Source: an uncultured Clostridia bacterium | GTDB taxonomy: Bacteria; Bacillota; Clostridia; TANB77; CAG-508 | Length of the DNA stretch: 64,000 nucleotides | Reading direction: 5' to 3' | Assembly (NCBI GenBank): GCA_947631785.1 | Contig: CANRMR010000002.1 | Coordinates: 706 to 64,705 of the forward strand | Shown: piece after piece, positions 3,029 to 31,228 of the stretch | Layout of the letters: each line of letters begins with the position of its first letter | How positions within the stretch are numbered: the first letter of the stretch is position 1 | The notes under the pieces: model-generated | Databases searched by the model: none | Told to the model about the DNA's origin: nothing | What the model saw: the letters and a program-made list of their open reading frames with translations, nothing else | Translations under genes and position numbers: made by a program

Positions 3029-4396
3029 TTAGTTTAAATTTTTTTCTATTAAATCTGCTAGCTTTTTTGCTTCAGCAGAGATATAGCTTTGGTCTTCACC
3101 TTCTATCATTACTCTAATTAATGGTTCTGTCCCAGAAGGTCTAATTAAAACTCTACCATTGTTTTTAAATTTATCTTTTAATTCATCAATTGCTTGTTTA
3201 ATTTGCTTATTTTCCTCATATTCCATTTTTCTTTTTTGATTAACTTTTGCATTTATTAAAACTTGTGGATATGTTTTTATAATTTTACTTAAATTTGATG
3301 CAGAAACATTTTCTTCTAACATAATTTTTATTAGCATTAAAGATGTAAATATACCATCTCCTGTTGGATTATAATCTAACATAATAATATGTCCAGATTG
3401 TTCCCCACCTAGATTATATCCATTTTCAAGCATTTTTTCTAAAACATATCGATCTCCTACATTAGTTTGCACTAAGTTTACATTATTATCATCTGCAAAA
3501 CGGTTCATTCCTAAATTACTCATAACAGTCGCAACTAAAGTATCTTTGTTTAACTTTTCTTTTTTCTTTAAATATTTTGCAAATATTGCAAGTAATTTAT
3601 CTCCATCTATTAAATTTCCTTTTTCATCAACTGCTAAACATCTGTCTCCATCGCCATCATAAGCAATACCTAATGAAAGTTTGTTATCTAATACAAATTT
3701 TTTTATATTTTCTATATGTGTTGAACCACAATTTTTGTTTATGTTTGTACCATCTGGATTATTGTTTATAATTTTATATGGTATTTTTAAACTTTTAAAT
3801 ATCTTTTCTGCAATCTTATAAGTTGCTCCATTTGCTGTATCAATTCCAACTATAAAGTCTTTTCTAGAATTGCACATTTGGTCAATATTTTCGAAATTAT
3901 TTATTACAAAGTTAATATAAGTATCAGACATATCACTTTTTACTTCAGAAATACCTATTTTATGTGGCACAGCATTTAACTTGCTAATTTTTCCAGAATC
4001 CATTATTTCTTCAATTTTTTCTTCTATATCGTCAGATATTTTCATTCCTTTATTACTAAAAAACTTAATTCCATTAAATTCATATGTATTGTGGGAAGCG
4101 GAAATTACAACACTTGCATCTGCATTATATTTTTTAGTAAGGTAAGCAACAGCTGGTGTTGGAATAACTCCTAGCAATTTTACATTTGCACCATAACTTA
4201 AAAATCCTGCTGTCATTGCGCTTTCAATAAGTGTTCCTGAAATTCTTGTATCTCTACCAATTAAAATAGTTGGAGTATTATTATTTTCTTTAGATAAAAC
4301 ATATGCTCCCGCTTTTGCAACTTTGTATACAAGTTCTGGAGTAAGTTCAGTATTTGCAATTCTTCTAATTCCATCTGTTCCAAAATATTTTCTCAT
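3029..4396 (-). CDS. glmM: Phosphoglucosamine mutase GlmM.
   Basis: FGTDGIRR N-terminus and the phosphoserine loop SASHNTYEFNGIKFF. Start assigned to the second ATG (MRKYF), preceded by a GGAGGT RBS. Confidence 0.9.
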   Translation of the reverse strand: MRKYFGTDGIRRIANTELTPELVYKVAKAGAYVLSKENNNTPTILIGRDTRISGTLIESAMTAGFLSYGANVKLLGVIPTPAVAYLTKKYNADASVVISASHNTYEFNGIKFFSNKGMKISDDIEEKIEEIMDSGKISKLNAVPHKIGISEVKSDMSDTYINFVINNFENIDQMCNSRKDFIVGIDTANGATYKIAEKIFKSLKIPYKIINNNPDGTNINKNCGSTHIENIKKFVLDNKLSLGIAYDGDGDRCLAVDEKGNLIDGDKLLAIFAKYLKKKEKLNKDTLVATVMSNLGMNRFADDNNVNLVQTNVGDRYVLEKMLENGYNLGGEQSGHIIMLDYNPTGDGIFTSLMLIKIMLEENVSASNLSKIIKTYPQVLINAKVNQKRKMEYEENKQIKQAIDELKDKFKNNGRVLIRPSGTEPLIRVMIEGEDQSYISAEAKKLADLIEKNLN

Positions 4397-20774: not shown

Positions 20775-21884
20775 TTATTTATTGTTAAACTCTTTAGAAA
20801 CTACATTTAGTGCTTCAAAAATCACTTTATCCATATCATAATATTTATATTGTCCAAGCCTTCCACCAAAAATAATATTATCATCTTTACTTGCTAATAA
20901 CTTATATTTTTCATATAAGTTATTATTTTTATCATTATTTATTGGATAATATGGCTCCTTTTCTTTATTCCAACTATCAGGATACTCTTTTGTAATTATC
21001 GTTTTAGGTCCATTTATATACTCAAAATGTTTATGTTCTATAATTCTTGTATACGGTACTTCATATTCTGTATAATTTACAACTGCATTCCCTTGATAAT
21101 TTTCTTCATCTAGAATTTCTGTTTCGAATCTTAAACTTCTATACTCTAATTCTCCAAATTTATAATTATAGTATTTATCAATAGGTCCTGTAAATATAAT
21201 TTTTTCTGCTATATTTTCTAATTCTTCTCTATTTTCAAAAAAATCGCAATTTAATTTAACTTCTATTTTATCTAACATTTTTTCTATTATTTTTGTATAA
21301 CCACCAATTGGAATACCTTGATAAATATCATTAAAATAGTTGTTATCATATGTAAACCTTACAGGCAATCTTTTAATAATAAAACTTGGAAGCTCCTCTG
21401 CTTTTTTTCCCCACTGTTTTTCTGTGTAACCTTTTACTAATTTTTCATAAATAGTTTTTCCAACCAAACTAATAGCCTGCTCTTCTAAATTTTTAGGATT
21501 AGTAATACCTGCTTCTTTCTTTTCTTCTTCTATTTTAGCCCTTGCCTCTTTTGGAGTTATAACTCCCCATAACTTATTAAAAGTATTCATATTAAATGGC
21601 ATGTTATATAACTCGCCTTTATATATTGCAACAGGAGAATTAGTATATCTATTAAATTCAGCAAATTGATTAATATATTCCCAAACTTCTTTATTACTTG
21701 TATGGAAAATATGTGCACCATATTTATGTACATTAATACCTTCAATATTTTTTGTATAAATATTTCCAGCTATATGATTTCTTTTATCTATAACTAAACA
21801 TTTCTTTCCTCTTTTATTTGCCTCATATGCAAATATAGCACCAAATAAACCAGCACCTACAATTAAATAATCATACATCTTCAT
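20775..21884 (-). CDS. glf: UDP-galactopyranose mutase.
   Basis: N-terminal FAD-binding YDYLIVGAGLFGAIFA motif. Size about 369 aa. Confidence 0.9.
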   Translation of the reverse strand: MKMYDYLIVGAGLFGAIFAYEANKRGKKCLVIDKRNHIAGNIYTKNIEGINVHKYGAHIFHTSNKEVWEYINQFAEFNRYTNSPVAIYKGELYNMPFNMNTFNKLWGVITPKEARAKIEEEKKEAGITNPKNLEEQAISLVGKTIYEKLVKGYTEKQWGKKAEELPSFIIKRLPVRFTYDNNYFNDIYQGIPIGGYTKIIEKMLDKIEVKLNCDFFENREELENIAEKIIFTGPIDKYYNYKFGELEYRSLRFETEILDEENYQGNAVVNYTEYEVPYTRIIEHKHFEYINGPKTIITKEYPDSWNKEKEPYYPINNDKNNNLYEKYKLLASKDDNIIFGGRLGQYKYYDMDKVIFEALNVVSKEFNNK

Positions 21885-21917
21885 TTACTCCTTACATTTA
21901 ATTTTGCTATATATAAA

Positions 21918-23066
21918 CTATTTTCTATCTTCAATTATAAAATATTTTTTAATTTTTTTTGTATTGCAGTTATTTTTAAATTTTTCTACAATATACATAA
22001 TAAATATTGAAAATAATATTGTTAAAATTATTATTATAGATAATTTTTGTATATATGTAAAATATGTTAATTTTTTATTTACTATTGATATAATCCATAT
22101 ATGATTTAAATATATTGGAAAACTTAATTTTTCTATATATTTAAAAAATTTTGTATTTGTATAATTAATAAATAATGTTTTCTCACTAAATGCCATTACT
22201 GTTGAAATAGATAATATAAGTAACATTATGAAATCATAATTTATACCAGCATCTTTTATATTAGTTATTAAAAATATAGAAAAGAAACCAACTATTTCTA
22301 TTAATGTAAATATAATTTTTGTTAATTTTGTATAATGTATTTTTTTTATTTTCTCAACTATTTCATATAATATAACTCCAAGGGATAATTCAAAAAAAGC
22401 TCTTAATAAACATTTGTATACAAAACCCGTATATTCCCATCCATTTAAAGTTCCATATGTATGAGATAACCATCCACCTATAAAAATAACAATTATAGGT
22501 GCAATTACATAAACAAAGTTCTTTTTATATTTTCTTATCAAAGGATATATAATTAGCATTGAAATTAACATTGCAGATATATACCAAGTTTGTCCAAGTA
22601 TTGATGTATATTTTATTCCTGATGTTTGTAAAAAGAATAAGTTCCATATTGAATTTATCAATTCATATCTTTTATACATTCCATTGTTATATATATTTAC
22701 AAATATTGTAATTATAAATGAAATTATCATATATGGAAAAAAGTTTTTAATTTTTTTCCATATAAAATCAAATGTTTCTTCTCCAATACTTGATTTTATT
22801 CTTTCTTTATTTAATGCATTTTTTGCAAGTAAATACCCAGATACAATGAAAAAAAATTCTACTCCTATATATCCATATTTAAATATAACATTTTCTGTTT
22901 TTGTAGAAATATTAAAATGATATACAACAATCATTAATGAAAACATAAATTTCCAAAAACCAATTATACCATTATGTGTTTTTTTATTTTTTTCTTTTAA
23001 CAGTTCCCCGTGTGTGTGTGTGTGTGTGTGTGTGTGTACAGTATCAATGGTTTCAAGCTTTTGCAT
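21918..23066 (-). CDS. Acyltransferase-3 family membrane O-acyltransferase. A (GT)14 dinucleotide repeat lies in its 5' coding region.
   Basis: Multi-TM acyltransferase_3 core (NGIIGFWKFMFSLMIVVYHFN...). The N-terminal leader MQKLETIDTV(HT)nG is encoded by (AC)14 on the coding strand. Confidence 0.7.
   Translation of the reverse strand: MQKLETIDTVHTHTHTHTHGELLKEKNKKTHNGIIGFWKFMFSLMIVVYHFNISTKTENVIFKYGYIGVEFFFIVSGYLLAKNALNKERIKSSIGEETFDFIWKKIKNFFPYMIISFIITIFVNIYNNGMYKRYELINSIWNLFFLQTSGIKYTSILGQTWYISAMLISMLIIYPLIRKYKKNFVYVIAPIIVIFIGGWLSHTYGTLNGWEYTGFVYKCLLRAFFELSLGVILYEIVEKIKKIHYTKLTKIIFTLIEIVGFFSIFLITNIKDAGINYDFIMLLILSISTVMAFSEKTLFINYTNTKFFKYIEKLSFPIYLNHIWIISIVNKKLTYFTYIQKLSIIIILTILFSIFIMYIVEKFKNNCNTKKIKKYFIIEDRK
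23010..23037. repeat. (GT)14 dinucleotide microsatellite inside the acyltransferase N-terminal coding region.
   Basis: gtgtgtgtgtgtgtgtgtgtgtgtgtgt at 23010..23037. Confidence 0.95.
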
Positions 23067-23103
23067 TTTCTATTTCTCCTTTTATTTTTTTTAAAACTAT
23101 CAT

Positions 23104-24147
23104 CTATAATAATTTAAAATACTCTATTGTTCTTTTTATTCCACTTTTCAAATTTGTACTTGGATTCCAACCAATACCCTCTAATTTCGTAGTATCTAGC
23201 ATTGTTCTTTTAAATTTAACATATTCATTATTATTTTCCTTTATATTAAATACAACATCAACTTTATTATTTAATAATTCTTTAATTAGATATGCTAAAT
23301 CTACAACCTTTATTTCTTCAGTTTCATTTGATAAATTATAAATTTCATTTTCATTATCATTTAATATTATTTTTAATAATCCATTTATTGCATCAGTAAC
23401 ATAGCAAAATGCTCTTATATCCTCGCCTTTACTTTTTAATATTATATTTTCATTTTTAACTGCATTTCCAATTAAATCTGACATTATTCTTCCATCATTA
23501 CTTATATTCATACCTGGACCATATACATGTGCAATTCTGGCTATTTTATATTTTATGCCATATTGATAAGCATAACTAATAATCAAATTTTCAGCCATTT
23601 TCTTACTTTCTGGATAGCATGACCTTAATTGTGTATTGTCCAAAACTCCCATGTCTGTTTCTTTTATTTTTTTTATAGAGTCATCTACTTTTCCATAAAT
23701 TTCTCTTGTTGATGGAAAGAATAATTTTGCATTCTTTTCTTTAGCAAGTTCTAAAACATTTAGTGTACCTAACACATTAGAATTAATAATTTCTACTGGT
23801 TTTTCAGTAATACTTTTTGGATTAGCGTTACTTGCCATATGTATAATATAATCAACATTTTCACTTATTTTTATTTTTTCATTTACATCTTGAACAATTG
23901 GTATAATATCATTTCTTTCATCATAATTTGTATTTTCTTTTAGCTTATTTACATTTCTAACTAAAGCAAATATTTTAATATTCATATTTTTGTTATCATT
24001 TAAAAACATAAGAAAATACATACAATAAGCTGCAAGCATGCCATTTGCACCTGTTATTAATATATTTTTATTTTTAAATTTCTCCAAATTGCTACTTTGT
24101 TTAAAAATAGTAACCATATCTTCCATAACTATTTTATTATTATACAT
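23104..24147 (-). CDS. NAD(P)-dependent extended SDR (epimerase/reductase). Likely the sugar-phosphate reductase partner of the cytidylyltransferase.
   Basis: Rossmann motif ILITGANGMLAAY and a YxxxK catalytic region. The start is chosen at the internal Met just after the upstream stop. Confidence 0.65.
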   Translation of the reverse strand: MYNNKIVMEDMVTIFKQSSNLEKFKNKNILITGANGMLAAYCMYFLMFLNDNKNMNIKIFALVRNVNKLKENTNYDERNDIIPIVQDVNEKIKISENVDYIIHMASNANPKSITEKPVEIINSNVLGTLNVLELAKEKNAKLFFPSTREIYGKVDDSIKKIKETDMGVLDNTQLRSCYPESKKMAENLIISYAYQYGIKYKIARIAHVYGPGMNISNDGRIMSDLIGNAVKNENIILKSKGEDIRAFCYVTDAINGLLKIILNDNENEIYNLSNETEEIKVVDLAYLIKELLNNKVDVVFNIKENNNEYVKFKRTMLDTTKLEGIGWNPSTNLKSGIKRTIEYFKLL

Positions 24148-24148
24148 A

Positions 24149-24865
24149 TTATATTTCCTCACACGCTTTATTTTTTCTTGCATAAATAGATTCTGCAAGT
24201 GCAATATCTTTTATTGTCGTAATTTTTATATTATCATAATCTGTTAAAACAACCGACAAAGGTTTATTATATTTATTCATTAATGTGCAAGAATCTATTG
24301 AATTAGTTATACCATCTTGCTGAGCCTTTATATGTACATTATAAATATCTTTTAAATAAAAACTTTGTGGTGCTTTAGCAATAAGTGATTCATTTCTTGG
24401 TATAACATATTTAATATTATTATTTTCATCTACCAAAACCTCTGTTTCTGTTGAATATACACTTGATATTGCACTACCTTTTTTCTTTACATTTTCAATA
24501 TTTATGTCTATTAATTCACTGTTAATAAATGGTCTAACACCATCATGTATTAAAACAATAGAATTTTCATCATACATTTTTTTTGCACATTTTAAGCCAT
24601 TAAATATAGACATTTGACCGGTTTCTCCACCTGGAACAATTTTACTTACTTTTCTTATATTATACACTTTAAGCAAATCTTTTAAATAATCAATCCATTC
24701 TACTTTTGAAGCTATAATTATTGCATCTATATTTTCGTTTTTTTCAAAAACCTCTAATGTATGTATTATAATTGGTTTATTGGATATTTCAATAAATTGT
24801 TTTGGTTTATCTGTTTGTCCCATTCTTTTGCCTACACCACCTGCAAATATGATTGCAATATTCAT
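24149..24865 (-). CDS. IspD/TarI-family nucleotidyltransferase (CDP-ribitol or CDP-alditol synthase type).
   Basis: N-terminal AIIFAGGVGKRMG...KQF motif of the IspD/TarI family. 238 aa. Confidence 0.75.
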   Translation of the reverse strand: MNIAIIFAGGVGKRMGQTDKPKQFIEISNKPIIIHTLEVFEKNENIDAIIIASKVEWIDYLKDLLKVYNIRKVSKIVPGGETGQMSIFNGLKCAKKMYDENSIVLIHDGVRPFINSELIDINIENVKKKGSAISSVYSTETEVLVDENNNIKYVIPRNESLIAKAPQSFYLKDIYNVHIKAQQDGITNSIDSCTLMNKYNKPLSVVLTDYDNIKITTIKDIALAESIYARKNKACEEI

Positions 24866-26325
24866 ACTATAACCTCTTTTCTTTTACTTTTTATTTTGCT
24901 TAATATATTTTTTATTGTATCGATTACTAGATCATCCTTTAATAATAATAAACTTATAATATAAACAGCTGATCCTATAACTATTTGTATTGACATCTTT
25001 ATGATTAAATTTAAATTAATAAAATTAATACCAACGATACATACAAGCATGATTATAGCCGATATTATCTTCTTCCAACTTGTTTCAACTAGACTTTTTA
25101 TATTATAAAAATTATTACAATTTTTTAGGTATAATAATGTTATAGTTAACTCTGCAATTATTGTTGCTATAACAGCGCCTTTACTCCATAAACCTGGTAT
25201 TAATACCAAATTTAGTATAAAATTAATAATTGCTCCTATTATAATAAATTTTGCACTCTTTAATCTTAATCCAGCTGGAGTATAATATTGGGAACCAAGG
25301 CAGTGACTTATACCAACTATAATAATAATTGGGCTTAGCAATTTTATTAATATACTAACATCATTATATCCTTCTCCAAAAAATATTGGTACAAAATTAT
25401 CTATAACACCTATTAGTCCAAAACAAGTACCTAATCCTATAAATAATATAAAGTTTATAGATTTTTTTATTTTTTCTTTTATTTCATCATACTTTCTTTC
25501 TGCAAAAAGATATGAAGTTCTTGAGCTAAGTACTGTATTTAAAGAAACAAATGTGATATTTTTGGCTACATTAATTATTTTTGTAGCTTGTTCATAATAT
25601 CCATTTTCGTCAGAATTTTTTGTGATAAGACCTATAAGAGTTTTATCTAAAACAGTATATATTGATGTCGCAATAGTAGGAATAAAATATTTTAATGTTT
25701 CTTTAAAATGTCTTAAAACTTTTAATTCTTTTAACTTTACTTTTTTAATAAATTTAGGAAGATATATCCACATTGATATTGTACCTAGTAAGGTTGTTAA
25801 AGACATTATAAATATGTATAATACTAAATCATTAGGATTTTTTATAAAAACAAACAATAGTACAGTACCTAATATTTTAAATAAAGAATTCTGAAGTATA
25901 GTATATTTAAATTGTTCTAAACCACTATAAAACCATGAAATATCAAATATAGTATTTAATAGGTTCATCGTTAAAATAATATATATAATTTTATGCTCAT
26001 TTGTTATAGCAATTAAAATTCCCCATGCAATTATACATATACTAGAAGTTAATATTGTTAATATTTCTATTTCCCAAAACAATTTACTTCTTACTGATTC
26101 ATTATCTCTATTTCTAGCTATTTCCCTAGCACCATATGATACAGTACCTAATGCTGCAAATAGCGTAAAAAAAGTTTGAATAGAAGATGTATAACTGTAT
26201 ATTCCAATCCCTGTGGCACCAATAACCCTTGATATATATGGAGTTGTTATAAATGGAATTAATATTGTCAAAATTTGATATATTGTATTATATATAATAT
26301 TTCTCTTTATACTTACACTTTTCAT
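24862..26325 (-). CDS. wzx: Wzx-type oligosaccharide flippase (MOP superfamily).
   Basis: 487-aa 12-14 TM polysaccharide biosynthesis protein. Confidence 0.75.
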   Translation of the reverse strand: MKSVSIKRNIIYNTIYQILTILIPFITTPYISRVIGATGIGIYSYTSSIQTFFTLFAALGTVSYGAREIARNRDNESVRSKLFWEIEILTILTSSICIIAWGILIAITNEHKIIYIILTMNLLNTIFDISWFYSGLEQFKYTILQNSLFKILGTVLLFVFIKNPNDLVLYIFIMSLTTLLGTISMWIYLPKFIKKVKLKELKVLRHFKETLKYFIPTIATSIYTVLDKTLIGLITKNSDENGYYEQATKIINVAKNITFVSLNTVLSSRTSYLFAERKYDEIKEKIKKSINFILFIGLGTCFGLIGVIDNFVPIFFGEGYNDVSILIKLLSPIIIIVGISHCLGSQYYTPAGLRLKSAKFIIIGAIINFILNLVLIPGLWSKGAVIATIIAELTITLLYLKNCNNFYNIKSLVETSWKKIISAIIMLVCIVGINFINLNLIIKMSIQIVIGSAVYIISLLLLKDDLVIDTIKNILSKIKSKRKEVIV

Positions 26326-26348
26326 TAATTAATCCTTTCACTACTTTA

Positions 26349-27170
26349 TTATCTCCAATATACTTCATTATCATGTTCTTTTATTTGTTTTTCTTTTGGA
26401 GGTAATTTCATATAATCGCCATAATGCTTAGTTAAATATTCATCATATCCAATTGGAGCCTTATATTTTTCACCTTCAAAATCTACTAATGTATAATCTT
26501 CTATATAACTACTTGGCATAACTTCTTTTTCTGCATATCTTCCACTTATACATGCTACTTTTTTAGTGTTTTTATATTTTATTGCAATATTATCTAAATA
26601 TTTTAATATTTTTGGAATTAACTTAAATTTTTTTATTATCATAAGCAATATTTTTTTTAAAAATAATTTTACTTTATTTTCAGTAACATCTGATATATTG
26701 TTATATTGATACATATATATTAATTTATATATTCTTCTGTATTTTTTCATGATTTTTTTGATCTTTTTTTCATTATCTGGTAAAAAATCTATAGGAAATA
26801 CATCAATGTATACGCCCATATCTTTTATTTGCTTATACTCATTTTCTATTAATATTGTTTTTGTATTAACTATTTTTGCAAAAGGATAATAATAATCATG
26901 TGTATTAATGTAATTAATTAATTTACAATTATCATTACATTCTATATTAAAATTATTTAATAAATTTTCATAATCTTTTCTTGGCATCATAATATCTATA
27001 TCATCATCCCAAGGTATATATCCCTTATGTCTTATTGCTCCTAATAACGTACCTCCACCTAAAAAAAAAGTTATATTATGAATTTCACAAACTCTTTTTA
27101 TTTCTTTTAATAGTTCTTGTTGTATATTTTTTTGTTCATCTAATGAAAGTTTCATATTACTGCTTATCAC
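26349..27170 (-). CDS. licD: LicD-family phosphotransferase (phosphocholine or alditol-phosphate transferase).
   Basis: LicD signature FFLGGGTLLGAIRHKGYIPWDDDIDIMMPRKDY. Confidence 0.75.
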   Translation of the reverse strand: MISSNMKLSLDEQKNIQQELLKEIKRVCEIHNITFFLGGGTLLGAIRHKGYIPWDDDIDIMMPRKDYENLLNNFNIECNDNCKLINYINTHDYYYPFAKIVNTKTILIENEYKQIKDMGVYIDVFPIDFLPDNEKKIKKIMKKYRRIYKLIYMYQYNNISDVTENKVKLFLKKILLMIIKKFKLIPKILKYLDNIAIKYKNTKKVACISGRYAEKEVMPSSYIEDYTLVDFEGEKYKAPIGYDEYLTKHYGDYMKLPPKEKQIKEHDNEVYWR

Positions 27171-28132
27171 CTTTTTTCCTTTAATCTTAATAAGAATTTT
27201 AATACATTTTTAAAGTAAATTGCAAGAAATATCTTTATTTTATCTATTTTATTAATTTTTCGATCTTTCATATAATATTTAAAATATTTTTTAATATTAT
27301 TTTTTAATTTATTATATATTTCAATATCTTGATTATATCTTAAAATTTTCATCATGCATGAATAATTTATTCTAATATATCTTTTTATTGCATATGGCAA
27401 AAGATCGTTAAAATTAATCTGGCAATCCTCAATAATGTTCTTACAAATTTGTATTTCTTTTTCCCAATCATCATTAAATTCACATGATGTTGTATTGCTT
27501 TTATGTAGCCTATAATAATAAGTATTTAAATTCGTATTTACTTTAATAATTTTCGAATTTTTTATCACATTATATAAATACACTAAATCTTCTGAAATTT
27601 TTAAATCTTCTCTAAACTTTACATTTTTTGCAATATTATTTTTATACATTTTAGACCATATAACTGAGGTATAAAATTTTTCGTTTAATAACTGCTTTAA
27701 AGCTTCTTCAGAATTTAAAATATTATCAAAAGGTATGCTTTTTTTAATAAATACATTATTATCGTCTATATCTATTGTCCCACAAATGCTAACATCTGCA
27801 TCACAACTTATAATTTCATCATATAAGAATTTAACATAATTTTTGTCAACATAGTCATCTGAATCAATAAATGTTATATATTTTCCATGTGCTTCATTTA
27901 TCCCAATATTTCTAGCTTTTGATACACCTTCATTTATTTTATGAATTACTTTCATTCGTTCATCTTTTTTTGAAAACTCATCACAAATTTTGCTAGAATT
28001 ATCTGTTGAACCATCATCTACTAATATAATTTCTATATTTTCATAAGTCTGTTTAGTAATACTATCTAAACACTCAAATATATATTTTTCTATATTATAA
28101 ACTGGAACAATAATAGAAATCAAGTCATTCAA
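27167..28132 (-). CDS. Family 2 glycosyltransferase.
   Basis: IVPVYNIEKYIFECLDSITKQTYENIEIILVDDGSTD followed by a DxD region. Confidence 0.8.
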   Translation of the reverse strand: MNDLISIIVPVYNIEKYIFECLDSITKQTYENIEIILVDDGSTDNSSKICDEFSKKDERMKVIHKINEGVSKARNIGINEAHGKYITFIDSDDYVDKNYVKFLYDEIISCDADVSICGTIDIDDNNVFIKKSIPFDNILNSEEALKQLLNEKFYTSVIWSKMYKNNIAKNVKFREDLKISEDLVYLYNVIKNSKIIKVNTNLNTYYYRLHKSNTTSCEFNDDWEKEIQICKNIIEDCQINFNDLLPYAIKRYIRINYSCMMKILRYNQDIEIYNKLKNNIKKYFKYYMKDRKINKIDKIKIFLAIYFKNVLKFLLRLKEKR

Positions 28133-28139
28133 TATTTCT

Positions 28140-29091
28140 TTATTCCTTTCTATACTTTATTTTCTTTAATTTTCCAATAAAAATCGGCATTAAATTATAA
28201 ATACATATTTCTACTTTTTTTAATATATTAACTGATTTTGATTTTATTATTAGATAAAATAGCTCTTTTTTCTTTTTGTATACTTTAGCTATATCAATTT
28301 TATTACCTATTAAACTATTTTTATAGATAATATCACAACATATTTTAAAAATATCAATATATAAATAATTTAAACTTTCAGCATAATTTTGTTTATATAC
28401 ATTTAGCAGTTTATCATATGAATCTAAAATAGTTAAATAATTTTTATTTAATTCTTTATTTAATGCACTTTGTGCATTATGGCTATAATGATATAATCTT
28501 TCATCAGTATAAGAACATTTTGTACATTTTAATAAATATTGGCAATTAAACCAAAAATCCTCAGCAATATAAAGCTTTTCATCAAACCTTATATTTTCTA
28601 TCTTATCTTTAATATATAATTTGTTAAATACATATCCTCTAAAATAATTTTTATTTATAATTAAGTCCATTGCTTCATTTACGGTAAATGTATTTTTAAG
28701 ATTTGTTTCTTTATTTGGAATATAATTACATATTGATATATCTGATTTATCTATTTGTATACTTGTTACTAATTTTTCTATCATCGTTTCTTCAATATAA
28801 TCATCAGCATCTATAAAACAAATATAATATCCGCATAGCATTATTAATACCTGCATTTCTTGCAGAAGATACTCCTTCATTTTTTTTGTGTATTACCTTA
28901 ATTCTTTTATCTTCTTTTTCAAAATTGCTGCAAATTGTACCTGATAAATCCGATGAACCATCATTTATTAGCAATATTTCTAAATTTTGATATGATTGAT
29001 TAATAATAGATTTTATGCATCTTTCTAAATATTTTTCAGCATTATACACTGGAACTATTACAGTTACCAATTTTTGTTCTATCTTTTCCAT
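28140..29091 (-). CDS. Family 2 glycosyltransferase, read through an in-frame CGG at 28831..28833 by a +1 shift.
   Basis: The N-terminal frame gives MEKIEQKLVTVIVPVYNAEKYLERCIKSIINQSYQNLEILLINDGSSD...ARNAGINNAM, then CGG. The +1 frame gives YYICFIDADDYIEE... The healed junction ARNAGINNAM-G-YYICFIDADDY reproduces the GT2 consensus seen in the paralog at 30240. Confidence 0.7.
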
Positions 29092-30211
29092 ATTGTTTAC
29101 CCCTATTAAATATACAATTACTTAAAATAAGTAATGGTACTGAAATTACTGTATTTATTATTAAATATTCTGTTAAGCCATACACAGCAAATAAAATCAT
29201 TATAATTTGGTCGTTAATTTTCATTTTCTTATTATTTCTTACAAATAAATATGATAATATTACAAAATAAATAATACCGTAATTAGAATATATTCTGGCA
29301 TACAAATTGTCCAATATTAAATATTTTTCCTTAAATTGAATTTTTTGTCCTATTAATGACATACCATCTTCATTTTTTGCCCTCTTCATATACCAAATTC
29401 TTCCACTTATTACTTCATCAATTTTTTTATCTACATTAGTATAATCTTTACTTATATATAAGAAAGATATTATAAGAATAGAAAATACAATAAAAATAAA
29501 TTTACTAGTTAATTGAAATATTTTTAGCTTTGCTTTAATATGCAAGTTTGATATTAAATGAAGTACAATTACAAGTGAAATTAAAATCATTGTTGTTCTA
29601 CTTTTTGTTGTAAATCCAATAAAAACTATTAATGCTATTCCAACAATATATTTAATTTTGTTCTTTTTATTATAGTATAATAAATACATATAAGCCATAT
29701 ATGTAACTAAAATAATTAATGAAGCATAATTTGGATTTCCTAAAAATAAATCATATTTTGGAATTTGATCTTTTGTATAGTGAAAACTCATTACATCTTT
29801 ATTAAATATTAAAAACCAAAAATAAATTATTGAATGTATCACTAACATAAAAATATTAAAGAAAATAATAATTTTTAATACTTTTTTTATATCTACATTT
29901 TTTATTCCTATAGCCATGAGTGCAGTTAATAAAATTAAATATTCTCCTGTTATATAAGATGTAATTGTTGTACATATAAGAATAAAAAATATCCCTATTT
30001 TTTGTGCTGTAGAGTATTTTTCCATACATATTTTTATAATTAATAAACCAATAATAGATATTGTTATTAATTTACTTAATATATTAGGAACTTTAAATAT
30101 TTCTGATGTAGAATAATATATTTTAAGTATCATTAGTATTATGCTCAAATAATATATCTCACTTTTAGTTATATTCTGTTTAGTAATTGTAAGTGGCTTT
30201 AACCATTTCAT
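29042..30211 (-). CDS. wzy: Wzy-type polysaccharide polymerase / O-antigen ligase-like membrane protein.
   Basis: About 390 aa with 10+ TM helices and a large periplasmic loop. Start trimmed to an internal Met to avoid overlap with the upstream GT2. Confidence 0.55.
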   Translation of the reverse strand: MKWLKPLTITKQNITKSEIYYLSIILMILKIYYSTSEIFKVPNILSKLITISIIGLLIIKICMEKYSTAQKIGIFFILICTTITSYITGEYLILLTALMAIGIKNVDIKKVLKIIIFFNIFMLVIHSIIYFWFLIFNKDVMSFHYTKDQIPKYDLFLGNPNYASLIILVTYMAYMYLLYYNKKNKIKYIVGIALIVFIGFTTKSRTTMILISLVIVLHLISNLHIKAKLKIFQLTSKFIFIVFSILIISFLYISKDYTNVDKKIDEVISGRIWYMKRAKNEDGMSLIGQKIQFKEKYLILDNLYARIYSNYGIIYFVILSYLFVRNNKKMKINDQIIMILFAVYGLTEYLIINTVISVPLLILSNCIFNRGKQYGKDRTKIGNCNSSSV

Positions 30212-30239
30212 TTTATATCTCCCTTCATCATTTATTTTA

Positions 30240-31217
30240 TTAGTTTCTTCCAGTAATTTTAGTGTACAAATACCAAAAAATTTTAAATACTGGTAATCCA
30301 ATATTTAATAAAACAATAGCTATTTTATCTCTTCTAGGTATTTCCTTATAAAAAAATACCTCTTTTTGATTTTCCTTAATTTTTAAAATTATATCTTTTT
30401 CCATTATTTTGTTTCGTGGATTCGTAAAAATAAGCATCCTAAGTATTCTAAAATTTGCATATAATTCAAATCTTTTTATTGATATTTCTAGTTCTGGATA
30501 CATTTGTTTAATATCTGCAAGCATGTTTTTTGTATGTTCAATATAATCTTCCTCATTTTTATTAAAACCATTTTGTTTTGAAATAGAATTTTTTCTTGCA
30601 ATATAATAATAGCATTTTTTATTGCCATATGCAATTGTACTTGCTTCTTCAATTAATTTATAAATTACAGCAGTATCTTCATATACTTTGCCTTTTGGAA
30701 ATTCAAAATTCTTCCACAAATCAGCTAAATACATTTTTGCATAAGCAGAAATTTCAATTCCCTTGTGAAGTAAAAGATTATTTAATGCTGATTTTGCATC
30801 TAGACACTCACTTTTTAAAATTTTTTCTTGTTTACATTTTTTGTTTTTCCAAACTACATTTACTCCACATATTGATAATTTTACATTATACTTCTTTATT
30901 AAATTATATAAATATTCTATATAATCTTCATCCACATAATCATCTGAGTCAATAAAAGAAATATATTTTCCTTTACATATTTTAATTCCTGCATTTCTAG
31001 CATCTGATAGTCCACCATTTTCTTTATGTATCACCTTTACCCTAGTATCTTTTTTAGCATATTCATCACAAATTTTACCACAATTGTCTGGTGAGCCATC
31101 ATCTACAAGAATAATTTCTAAGTTTTTATATGTTTGATTTATAATACTATCAATACATCGCTTTATATATTCTTCCACTTTGTATACTGGTACTATTACA
31201 CTAATTAAATCATCCAT
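30240..31217 (-). CDS. Family 2 glycosyltransferase.
   Basis: ISVIVPVYKVEEYIKRCIDSIINQTYKNLEIILVDDGSPDN...ARNAGIKICKGKYISFIDSDDY. Confidence 0.8.
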   Translation of the reverse strand: MDDLISVIVPVYKVEEYIKRCIDSIINQTYKNLEIILVDDGSPDNCGKICDEYAKKDTRVKVIHKENGGLSDARNAGIKICKGKYISFIDSDDYVDEDYIEYLYNLIKKYNVKLSICGVNVVWKNKKCKQEKILKSECLDAKSALNNLLLHKGIEISAYAKMYLADLWKNFEFPKGKVYEDTAVIYKLIEEASTIAYGNKKCYYYIARKNSISKQNGFNKNEEDYIEHTKNMLADIKQMYPELEISIKRFELYANFRILRMLIFTNPRNKIMEKDIILKIKENQKEVFFYKEIPRRDKIAIVLLNIGLPVFKIFWYLYTKITGRN

Positions 31218-31228
31218 AAATATTTTAA

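Follow-up and report, generated by a model that had tools for sequence, protein, structure and literature searches.

We analyzed a 64,000-nt stretch of DNA from an uncultured Clostridia bacterium (contig CANRMR010000002.1 of assembly GCA_947631785.1; referred to here as the window), in which a gene for a predicted polysaccharide O-acyltransferase carries a perfect (AC)14 dinucleotide repeat close to its start codon. Judged from the sequence, this tract is most likely a slipped-strand contingency switch within the translated 5' leader of an O-acyltransferase gene for a capsule or cell-wall polysaccharide. The tract and its flank are a copy of a leader-(AC)n module that is found in front of many genes of uncultured low-GC Clostridia of this lineage and of their phages, and this membership of a conserved, reused leader module was overlooked in the initial annotation of the locus. 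Switching in vivo and its rate, as well as the acyl group and the target sugar, are what we infer. Coordinates are those of the window, and the acyltransferase gene and the tract are on its minus strand.

RESULTS

The acyltransferase gene contains a perfect (AC)14 tract in its coding leader

The gene (21918..23066) encodes an acyltransferase-3 (AT3)-only protein of 382 aa, which matches Pfam Acyl_transf_3 (PF01757) over residues 37-357 (E=5.6e-24, 85.2 bits versus a cut-off of 31) and is in frame (ON) at n=14. The perfect 28-bp (AC)14 tract described in the initial annotation, which is (GT)14 on the plus strand, was found at 23010..23037 by Tandem Repeats Finder (period 2, 14.0 copies, 100% matches, no indels) and agreed with the raw sequence. 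It begins with the last base of codon 10 and covers codons 10-20 of the open reading frame (ORF), encoding V-HTHTHTHTH. The minus-strand start region reads ATG CAA AAG CTT GAA ACC ATT GAT ACT GT-(AC)14-GGG GAA CTG TTA AAA GAA AAA, and its translation, MQKLETIDTV-HTHTHTHTH-GELLKEK, is identical to the N-terminus previously given as MQKLETIDTV-(HT)n-GELLKEK. The tract (residues 10-20) is located C-terminal of the start codon and N-terminal of the Acyl_transf_3 domain, and the position claimed for it, between the start codon and the acyltransferase core, is borne out by the PF01757 match, which begins only at residue 37.

Leader codons 1-10 (MQKLETIDTV) occupy 23038..23066, with the ATG at 23064-23066 being the sole in-frame start upstream of the invariant core of the protein. 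A Shine-Dalgarno sequence, AGGAG (23076..23080), read directly from AAAAGGAGAAATAGAAA-ATG, is located 9 nt upstream of the ATG, and the conserved 5' flank ATTGATACTGT (I-D-T-V; 23038..23048), which recurs in related loci, abuts the tract. From the dinucleotide frequencies of the window (GC 25.3%), such a tract is expected by chance 2e-14 times per strand. It is the only long simple sequence repeat (SSR) in the window, as had been noted, the runners-up being (AT)5 dinucleotide runs and 9-nt homopolymers, and no tetra- or penta-nucleotide arrays were detected in the SSR scan of the window. A long, uninterrupted repeat inside an ORF or its translated leader, with a unit length not divisible by 3, is a feature of SSR contingency loci, and (AC)14 is such a repeat with 100% purity.

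One repeat-number class is predicted to yield the full-length enzyme

The repeat number was changed in silico, and the full-length protein was obtained only at n=11, 14 and 17; all other values of n gave a peptide of 21-28 aa (26 aa for n=13 and 23 aa for n=15), in agreement with the claim that a change of one unit in either direction shifts the frame. The tract is stop-free in every frame, encoding His/Thr, and the stop codons that end the two other frames are found by frame scan shortly past it: a TAA at 22997..22999 for n mod 3 = 0 (e.g., n=15; product ...TGNC, 21-25 aa) and a TAA at 22984..22986 for n mod 3 = 1 (e.g., n=13; product ...RGTVKRKK, 24-28 aa).

In the mechanism that we propose, the ribosome would start at the ATG at 23066, read the 10-codon leader and then the stop-free His-Thr tract, and enter the enzyme only if n mod 3 = 2, which would be the sole ON state. 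A replication slip of one AC unit would lead it into a frame that stops 11-26 nt past the tract, functional enzyme would be absent, the polymer would lack the acyl group, and another slip would restore the frame. Changes of three units (n=11, 14, 17) would be tolerated, because residues 1-27 are predicted to be a disordered tail ahead of the first transmembrane helix (TM1), and only the length of this tail would be altered.

Repeat number and reading frame vary among AT3 homologues

A total of 344 homologues of the AT3 protein were found, the closest non-identical one sharing 61% identity, and the few named ones are from metagenome-assembled genomes (MAGs) of uncultured Clostridia or Bacillota (Firmicutes). 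Two homologues with 53-54% identity, P0015 (locus L001) and P0021 (L002), which lie in differing polysaccharide loci, carry GATACTGT-(AC)11-GGGGA in frame and are ON. In P0031 (L170), the ribosome-binding site (RBS), ATG and leader are intact and followed by (AC)15; the leader frame ends just past the tract, and the enzyme is in another frame. P0020 (L165) has a decayed tract (GATACTGTATACACACGGGA) and P0023 (L166/L167) has lost the tract, both being frameshifted. The ON alleles of this AT3 subfamily all have n mod 3 = 2 (11, 11, 14), and there is one OFF allele (n=15). The initial annotation had called for a comparison of repeat numbers among strains; among AT3-family homologues, the number varies and alters the frame (11 and 11 in; 15 out). 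As far as can be read from these sequences, the distribution of ON and OFF alleles is the pattern expected for a contingency locus. The L001 acyltransferase gene is directly followed by a Glucos_trans_II gene (535 aa) that has its own leader, MKDDVTIEVV, and (AC)10 (region L001:7140-7260), so that two adjacent glycan-modification genes would each have a switch.

The tract and its flank recur as a leader module in Clostridia and phages

One genome per GTDB species was scanned for GAYACNGT(AC)≥7. The scan returned 44 stretches, 42 of which were in 26 gut MAGs (of rabbit, mouse and human) of uncultured Clostridia, Clostridium or Eubacteriales, with up to six copies per genome. Across these 42 stretches the flank ...TTGATACTGT-(AC)n is repeated, with n ranging from 7 to 27 and all frame classes represented. 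JGI metagenomes added about 10 copies (of 118 matches, the others being unrelated microsatellites with GC-rich flanks), and two more were on IMG/VR viral contigs. The large majority of copies have the same layout: an RBS, an ATG, 2-16 codons, ...GCNnnAAnnnTTGATACTGT, and (AC)n on the sense strand. The module, defined as RBS, ATG, 2-16 codons, NTTGATACTGT or a close variant, (AC)n and often a Gly codon, is present in the window as AGGAG-N9-ATG, 6 codons, and ATTGATACTGT-(AC)14-GGG.

Conservation is limited to ~20 nt 5' of the tract, and the RBS and promoter regions are unrelated. Within the flank, Thr is almost always encoded by ACT and the L/V/I codon is always NTT, opposing the codon preference of the window (ACA 68%, TTA 64%, GTA 57%). 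Shared ancestry and peptide constraint fail to account for these fixed third-codon positions. The 10-mer flank without a tract occurs seven times in the window against 7.3 expected, which is the chance level and gives no sign of hidden module copies there.

A pattern-free inspection of the fetched loci revealed five more leader-borne tracts, with the flanks ATTGAGGTTGT, CTTGAGACTGT, ATTGGTACTGT, CTTGCTACTGT and ACTGAGGCAGT; one of the five is that of the Glucos_trans_II gene behind the L001 acyltransferase gene. When viral contigs were scanned for bare (AC)11, the TG-N5-GT leader flank was found in 8 of 21 tracts in AT-rich context versus 0 of 109 elsewhere. The phage-borne copies on IMG/VR contigs (L192/L265 and L231/L288) have the flank variants CTTGGGGCTGT and CTTGAGGCTGT. 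An AGAGGTG ribosome site is found ~20 nt past the tract in L192/L265 and is absent from the 30 nt shown of L231 and L288. Repeat number differs between copies with identical surroundings: L081 (n=16) matches L067, L109 and L172 (n=18) at 100% over 150 nt on each side of the tract, and L192 (n=11) and L265 (n=18) are identical over the compared 45 nt upstream and 30 nt downstream.

Other dinucleotide runs were observed as well. Members of a TFTELVDSLE paralogue family (L013, L019, L040, L043) contain a short (AG)3-5 run ~35 nt past (AC)n, and (AG)9 and (CT)13 tracts are found at L015:2042 and L021:2116. The (AG)/(CT) tracts in module genomes are possible second switches.

The module is wired to downstream genes in three ways

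In the first wiring (wiring A), the leader is fused directly to long ORFs, 9 of which are ON and about 13 OFF. The fused genes encode AT3 and hexapeptide acyltransferases, MaoC-like proteins, a DNA methylase, a NUMOD4 protein and large proteins with a pilin-like N-terminus. The methylase gene (L106, ~4146-4167, minus strand; N6_N4 DNA methylase with a DPPY motif, Pfam E=8e-33) is fused out of frame to leader-(AC)10. Its product may be a phase-variable methyltransferase (phasevarion).

About 25 loci carry the leader and tract unfused, ahead of terminators or ribosome sites. In wiring B, a strong hairpin with a T-run (free energy, dG, -10 to -28; often ending in TTTTTGTCG) lies past the tract at 20 distinct loci (L007-L009, L014-L016, L022-L024, L028, L030, L033, L037, L038, L041, L079 and L102; also L011, L019 and L046). 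One frame leads into or up to the hairpin in all 20 loci, compared with 2 of 40 for the other frames. A structural gene with its own RBS comes next, sometimes just 15-35 nt past the T-run, and it mostly encodes a large surface protein, including ones with DUF285/LRR, Listeria-Bacteroides repeat or FGE-like domains. Judged from their anatomy, the wiring B loci look like phase-variable attenuators of the Streptococcus gallolyticus pil1 type, here with a dinucleotide repeat. This layout was not found at the window AT3 gene, where the best hairpin (dG -6.0) lies within the coding sequence.

Wiring C is a coupling arrangement and was seen in L027, L067/L081/L109/L172 and L105. Here one of the leader frames terminates on, or slightly past, the start codon of the following gene; stop and start overlap as TAATG in L027 and in the L067 group. 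The Shine-Dalgarno sequence of the following gene is paired in a hairpin (-11.8 to -16.7 kcal/mol). In the L067 group, n=16 (L081) puts the leader stop on the TAATG overlap, and n=18 (L067, L109, L172) stops 25 nt earlier. L172 is an IMG/VR viral contig, and the protein downstream has no Pfam match. Altogether, the genes controlled by the module (acyltransferases, a glucosyltransferase, large surface proteins and a DNA methylase) are typical phase-variation targets.

The tract appears to be maintained as a DNA repeat

The His-Thr run could instead be a stable, functional N-terminal peptide, such as a metal-binding or spacer tail, with the length differences among homologues being ordinary indels. 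At the peptide level, [L/I/V]-[D/E]-T-V-(HT)n-G is indeed kept in proteins that are just 53% identical, and the in-frame alleles (n=11, 11, 14) all retain the tail. This explanation is nevertheless improbable. The run uses only CAC and ACA, although 85% of the His codons in the window are CAT; all five His codons of the tract are CAC (P about 1.6e-5 were the peptide selected), and because of this bias the codon usage argues for maintenance of the repeat at the DNA level and not as a selected His-Thr peptide. A selected peptide also does not fit the out-of-frame alleles with intact leaders (L170 and about 13 fused loci), the roughly 25 loci in which leader and tract are not fused to a protein, the loci with identical flanks that are 2 or 7 units apart, or the predicted disorder of the tail. 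Two further ideas were considered and rejected. Classical attenuation by a His/Thr leader was ruled out, since the downstream genes encode surface proteins and are not biosynthetic operons and the element is a pure DNA repeat varying in n; a precursor of a ribosomally synthesized and post-translationally modified peptide was ruled out, since the same leader is fused to enzymes and is present in all three frames.

Alternating purine-pyrimidine repeats such as (AC/GT)n are classical Z-DNA-forming sequences, and the tract might work mainly on transcription, either through this structure or as a variable spacer after a -35-like TTGATA, which is present in the flank and matches TTGACA at five of six positions. 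We regard this as a slim possibility, smaller than that of a functional peptide. The tract length of 14-54 nt is incompatible with a promoter spacer of 17 nt, being far too great and too variable, and a -10 element does not follow at any fixed distance, which together rule out TTGATA as a -35 element. Moreover, a ribosome site and an in-frame ATG precede the tract in the large majority of copies, and the stops in the three frames are arranged frame-specifically with respect to ORFs, terminators and start codons.

The full-length enzyme is predicted to require translation through the tract

We examined the start of the protein. The AlphaFold2 model is all-helical (mean pLDDT 88.7, pTM 0.87), and residues 1-27, with pLDDT below 50, are predicted to be a disordered cytoplasmic tail ahead of TM1. 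TM1 (residues 33-55; 22902..22970), as placed by the model, contains the invariant residues K39 and H50, and M41, the first residue of MFSLMIV..., is in the middle of this helix. N32, I35, K39, F40 and H50 are invariant columns in a 48-sequence alignment, and more than 100 homologues share the stretch KHNGII(G/S)FWKF ahead of M41. The predicted structure fits the AT3 family, whose members have a polytopic helical membrane fold of about 10 TM helices and carry a basic residue together with a His in TM1; the basic residue here is Lys and not Arg. K39 and H50 are spaced by 11 residues, as are R14 and H25 of OafB, which are essential (PMC9833829). In the sequence of the locus, no ATG, GTG or TTG is in frame between the tract and M41.

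If the true start were this internal Met (MFSLMIV...), the tract would lie in the 5' untranslated region (UTR) and its length would have no effect on the protein. Gene callers did pick that Met in P0020, P0023, P0026 and P0031, but those homologues are precisely the ones that are frameshifted upstream ((AC)15, decayed or lost tract). An internal start is also hard to reconcile with the conserved KHNGIISFWKF upstream of the Met, which contains four invariant residues, with the predicted position of M41 in mid-TM1 and the match by spacing of K39 to the essential R14 of OafB (PMC9833829), and with the lack of a good Shine-Dalgarno sequence: no convincing ribosome site is found at M41, and the upstream ATG has AGGAG. 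An internal start is thus very improbable. Because of the invariant residues upstream of M41, the mid-helix position of M41 and the lack of another in-frame start, the full-length enzyme should require translation through the tract. The tract is coding, as the initial annotation had it; a start at MFSLMIV... with the tract in the 5' UTR, the counter-case that it named, does not apply to the full-length enzyme.

Leader and tract are present in independent samples

Exact-protein look-ups with AT3 and Glf returned no contig. Exact look-ups with the IspD-like protein, VanZ and SDR found the same strain in 4-5 low-coverage ENA/Logan samples, and none of the contigs spans the tract. Two contigs reach the site, L174 (2555-2600; ERZ27249329) and L179 (1800-1869; ERZ27249118), which correspond to window 23021-23070 and are identical to the window through the leader. 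The existence of the leader and tract is independently confirmed by these contigs. An artefact of assembly or sequencing, or a microsatellite that is neutral and decaying, might be supposed from a source that is probably a short-read MAG and from low-coverage contigs that break at the tract. This explanation has a negligible chance of being correct, given that the leader and tract start are reproduced base for base in two independent samples, that independent assemblies of relatives share the structure, and that the tract is perfectly pure and in frame. As a side observation, SSR switches of this kind break up low-coverage assemblies (L174, L179).

Several points weigh against a contingency switch at this locus. 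The identical AT3 protein occurs only once in the protein collection; of the other contigs, only L174 and L179 extend to the site, and both break off within the tract, at ~3x coverage; and repeat counts in short-read MAGs may be off by one unit. The contig breaks are uninformative on heterogeneity, because a small-k assembler at 3x would break at an SSR anyway. Initiation at M41 or M45 might occur at a low level while the gene is OFF. Finally, simple slippage leaves the strict nucleotide conservation of the 5' flank unexplained, and more than the textbook mechanism may be involved. It is conceivable, although we hold this only tentatively and with far less confidence than the switch itself, that uncultured low-GC gut Clostridia of this lineage and their phages share a reusable leader of ~20 nt (NTTGATACTGT and variants) with (AC)n, wired in three ways (in-frame fusion, ribosome-dependent anti-termination and translational coupling), in which the flank reflects more than common descent and is functionally required. 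The flank might control the rate or direction of slippage, offer a second initiation frame (TTG), or be recognized by a dedicated factor.

The acyltransferase gene lies in a polysaccharide operon

The AT3 gene belongs to a polysaccharide operon on the minus strand (20220..33936), delimited by Pfam matches and a terminator scan, with a terminator-like site at 20061-20080. The operon members are LytR-CpsA-Psr, Bac_transf (initiating sugar transferase), DUF4422, GT2 genes, a putative Wzy, LicD, a Wzx-type flippase (24862-26325), an IspD-like cytidylyltransferase (24149-24865), an SDR (23104-24147), AT3, the UDP-galactopyranose mutase Glf (20775-21884) and VanZ. The locus had been called a Wzx/Wzy locus: the Wzx-type flippase is identified by Pfam, but Wzy is putative only, being a 419-aa ORF with several hydrophobic segments and without a Pfam match. 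The AT3 start follows the SDR stop by 37 nt, so the AT3 gene probably is co-transcribed with the operon. The genomic context, with CDP-alditol genes, LicD, Glf and Wzx, suggests a surface polysaccharide as the AT3 substrate. A polar effect of the OFF state on glf and vanZ is speculative.

Other features of the window

No Rfam family was found at the tract, the single Rfam match in the window being a full-length OLE (ornate large extremophilic) RNA (17365-17966, minus strand; 364 bits, E=2e-103), which has a phosphoglucomutase gene on one side and a 188-aa ORF on the other. Elsewhere the window contains ordinary chromosomal genes, including UvrA, AlaS and PolA. Together with the OLE RNA, these genes are consistent with an anaerobe of the Bacillota. 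DNA polymerase I (58538-61277, minus strand) is in two ORFs: the 499-aa one matches the PolA model over positions 393-889 only, and the other, of 402 aa, lies upstream of it. At 50026-50201, a 54-bp unit with the GC-rich palindrome GTAGGGGCAGACGCCTCTGTCTGCCC is repeated in 3.3 tandem copies, in a genome of 25% GC. Since this repeat falls in the 5' part of an LRR-adhesin-like ORF (48025-50235), the true start of the ORF may be downstream. Elements like GTAGGGGC...GCCCC were seen near the related loci L014, L024, L041 and L079. Both the 54-bp palindromic units and the GTAGGGGC...GCCCC elements look like elements of the repetitive extragenic palindromic (REP) type.

DISCUSSION

To our knowledge, studies of phase variation in gut commensals have mainly dealt with invertible promoters and shufflons (Bacteroides, some Clostridia), and the repeat-based contingency loci that we know of are mostly from a few pathogens. 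The locus described here and roughly 60 related copies suggest a lineage-wide, repeat-based system of switchable genes, in uncultured, low-GC gut Clostridia and their phages, that uses a single portable leader. Its targets would include capsule O-acylation, glycosyltransferases, large surface proteins, a DNA methylase and unannotated phage-borne genes. For the window gene, a switch, if real, would make one acyl decoration of a surface polymer randomly present or absent, and changes of acyl decorations elsewhere are known to alter recognition by phages and antibodies. For annotation, OFF alleles are mistaken by gene callers for N-terminally truncated genes (P0020, P0023, P0031), and MAG assemblies break at such tracts. 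The motif is a simple sequence handle by which switchable surface genes can be located in metagenomes and their ON/OFF ratios measured from reads.

The principle of an SSR-switched O-acetyltransferase is already known from oafA and wciZ. In Streptococcus pneumoniae wciZ (15B/15C), the length of a dinucleotide repeat frameshifts the capsule O-acetyltransferase, O-acetylation is lost, and the switching was reported to be reversible (PMC5028725). The window locus is like wciZ in having a dinucleotide repeat in an O-acyltransferase gene of a capsule-type locus, which for wciZ is of the Wzx/Wzy type. Unlike the window tract, the wciZ repeat is TA, lies near position 413 of the gene, is confined to a single locus and shares no flank with other genes.

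Haemophilus influenzae oafA, an AT3 O-acetyltransferase of lipooligosaccharide (LOS), is phase variable by a simple repeat (PMC9558356, citing Fox et al. 2005). The two systems have in common an Acyl_transf_3 protein, an associated repeat and a surface glycan as the target, which in our case is predicted. The oafA system differs in its tetranucleotide repeat, in its Gram-negative pathogenic host, in its LOS target (a Wzx-dependent polymer in the window), and in belonging to a phasome of several repeat units and not to a set of genes with one shared leader.

In Streptococcus gallolyticus pil1/pil3 (Danne et al. 2014, PMC3894217), the stopping point of the ribosome with respect to a premature terminator is determined by a repeat within a short leader ORF, and a stop in or next to the hairpin results in transcription read-through, which was shown experimentally (PMC3894217). 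This layout is that of 20 related Clostridia (AC)n loci, which by their anatomy may work in a similar way, and not that of the window gene. The pil1/pil3 repeat is GCAGA and is confined to two pilus operons of a cultured organism. The window gene differs from pil1 in being a direct in-frame fusion with no terminator past the tract.

No earlier account of Clostridia leaders with (AC)n or His-Thr was found in open-access papers and bioRxiv, and the conserved, reusable leader appears to be undescribed so far. In the phasomes of Neisseria, Campylobacter, Helicobacter and Haemophilus, many surface, glycan-modification and methyltransferase genes carry hypermutable repeats and are combinatorially ON or OFF. 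The repeats of those phasomes are homopolymers or assorted units without a common flank, whereas the Clostridia module has one unit (AC) in one orientation behind one leader motif of ~20 nt, in both host and phage genes and in three wirings.

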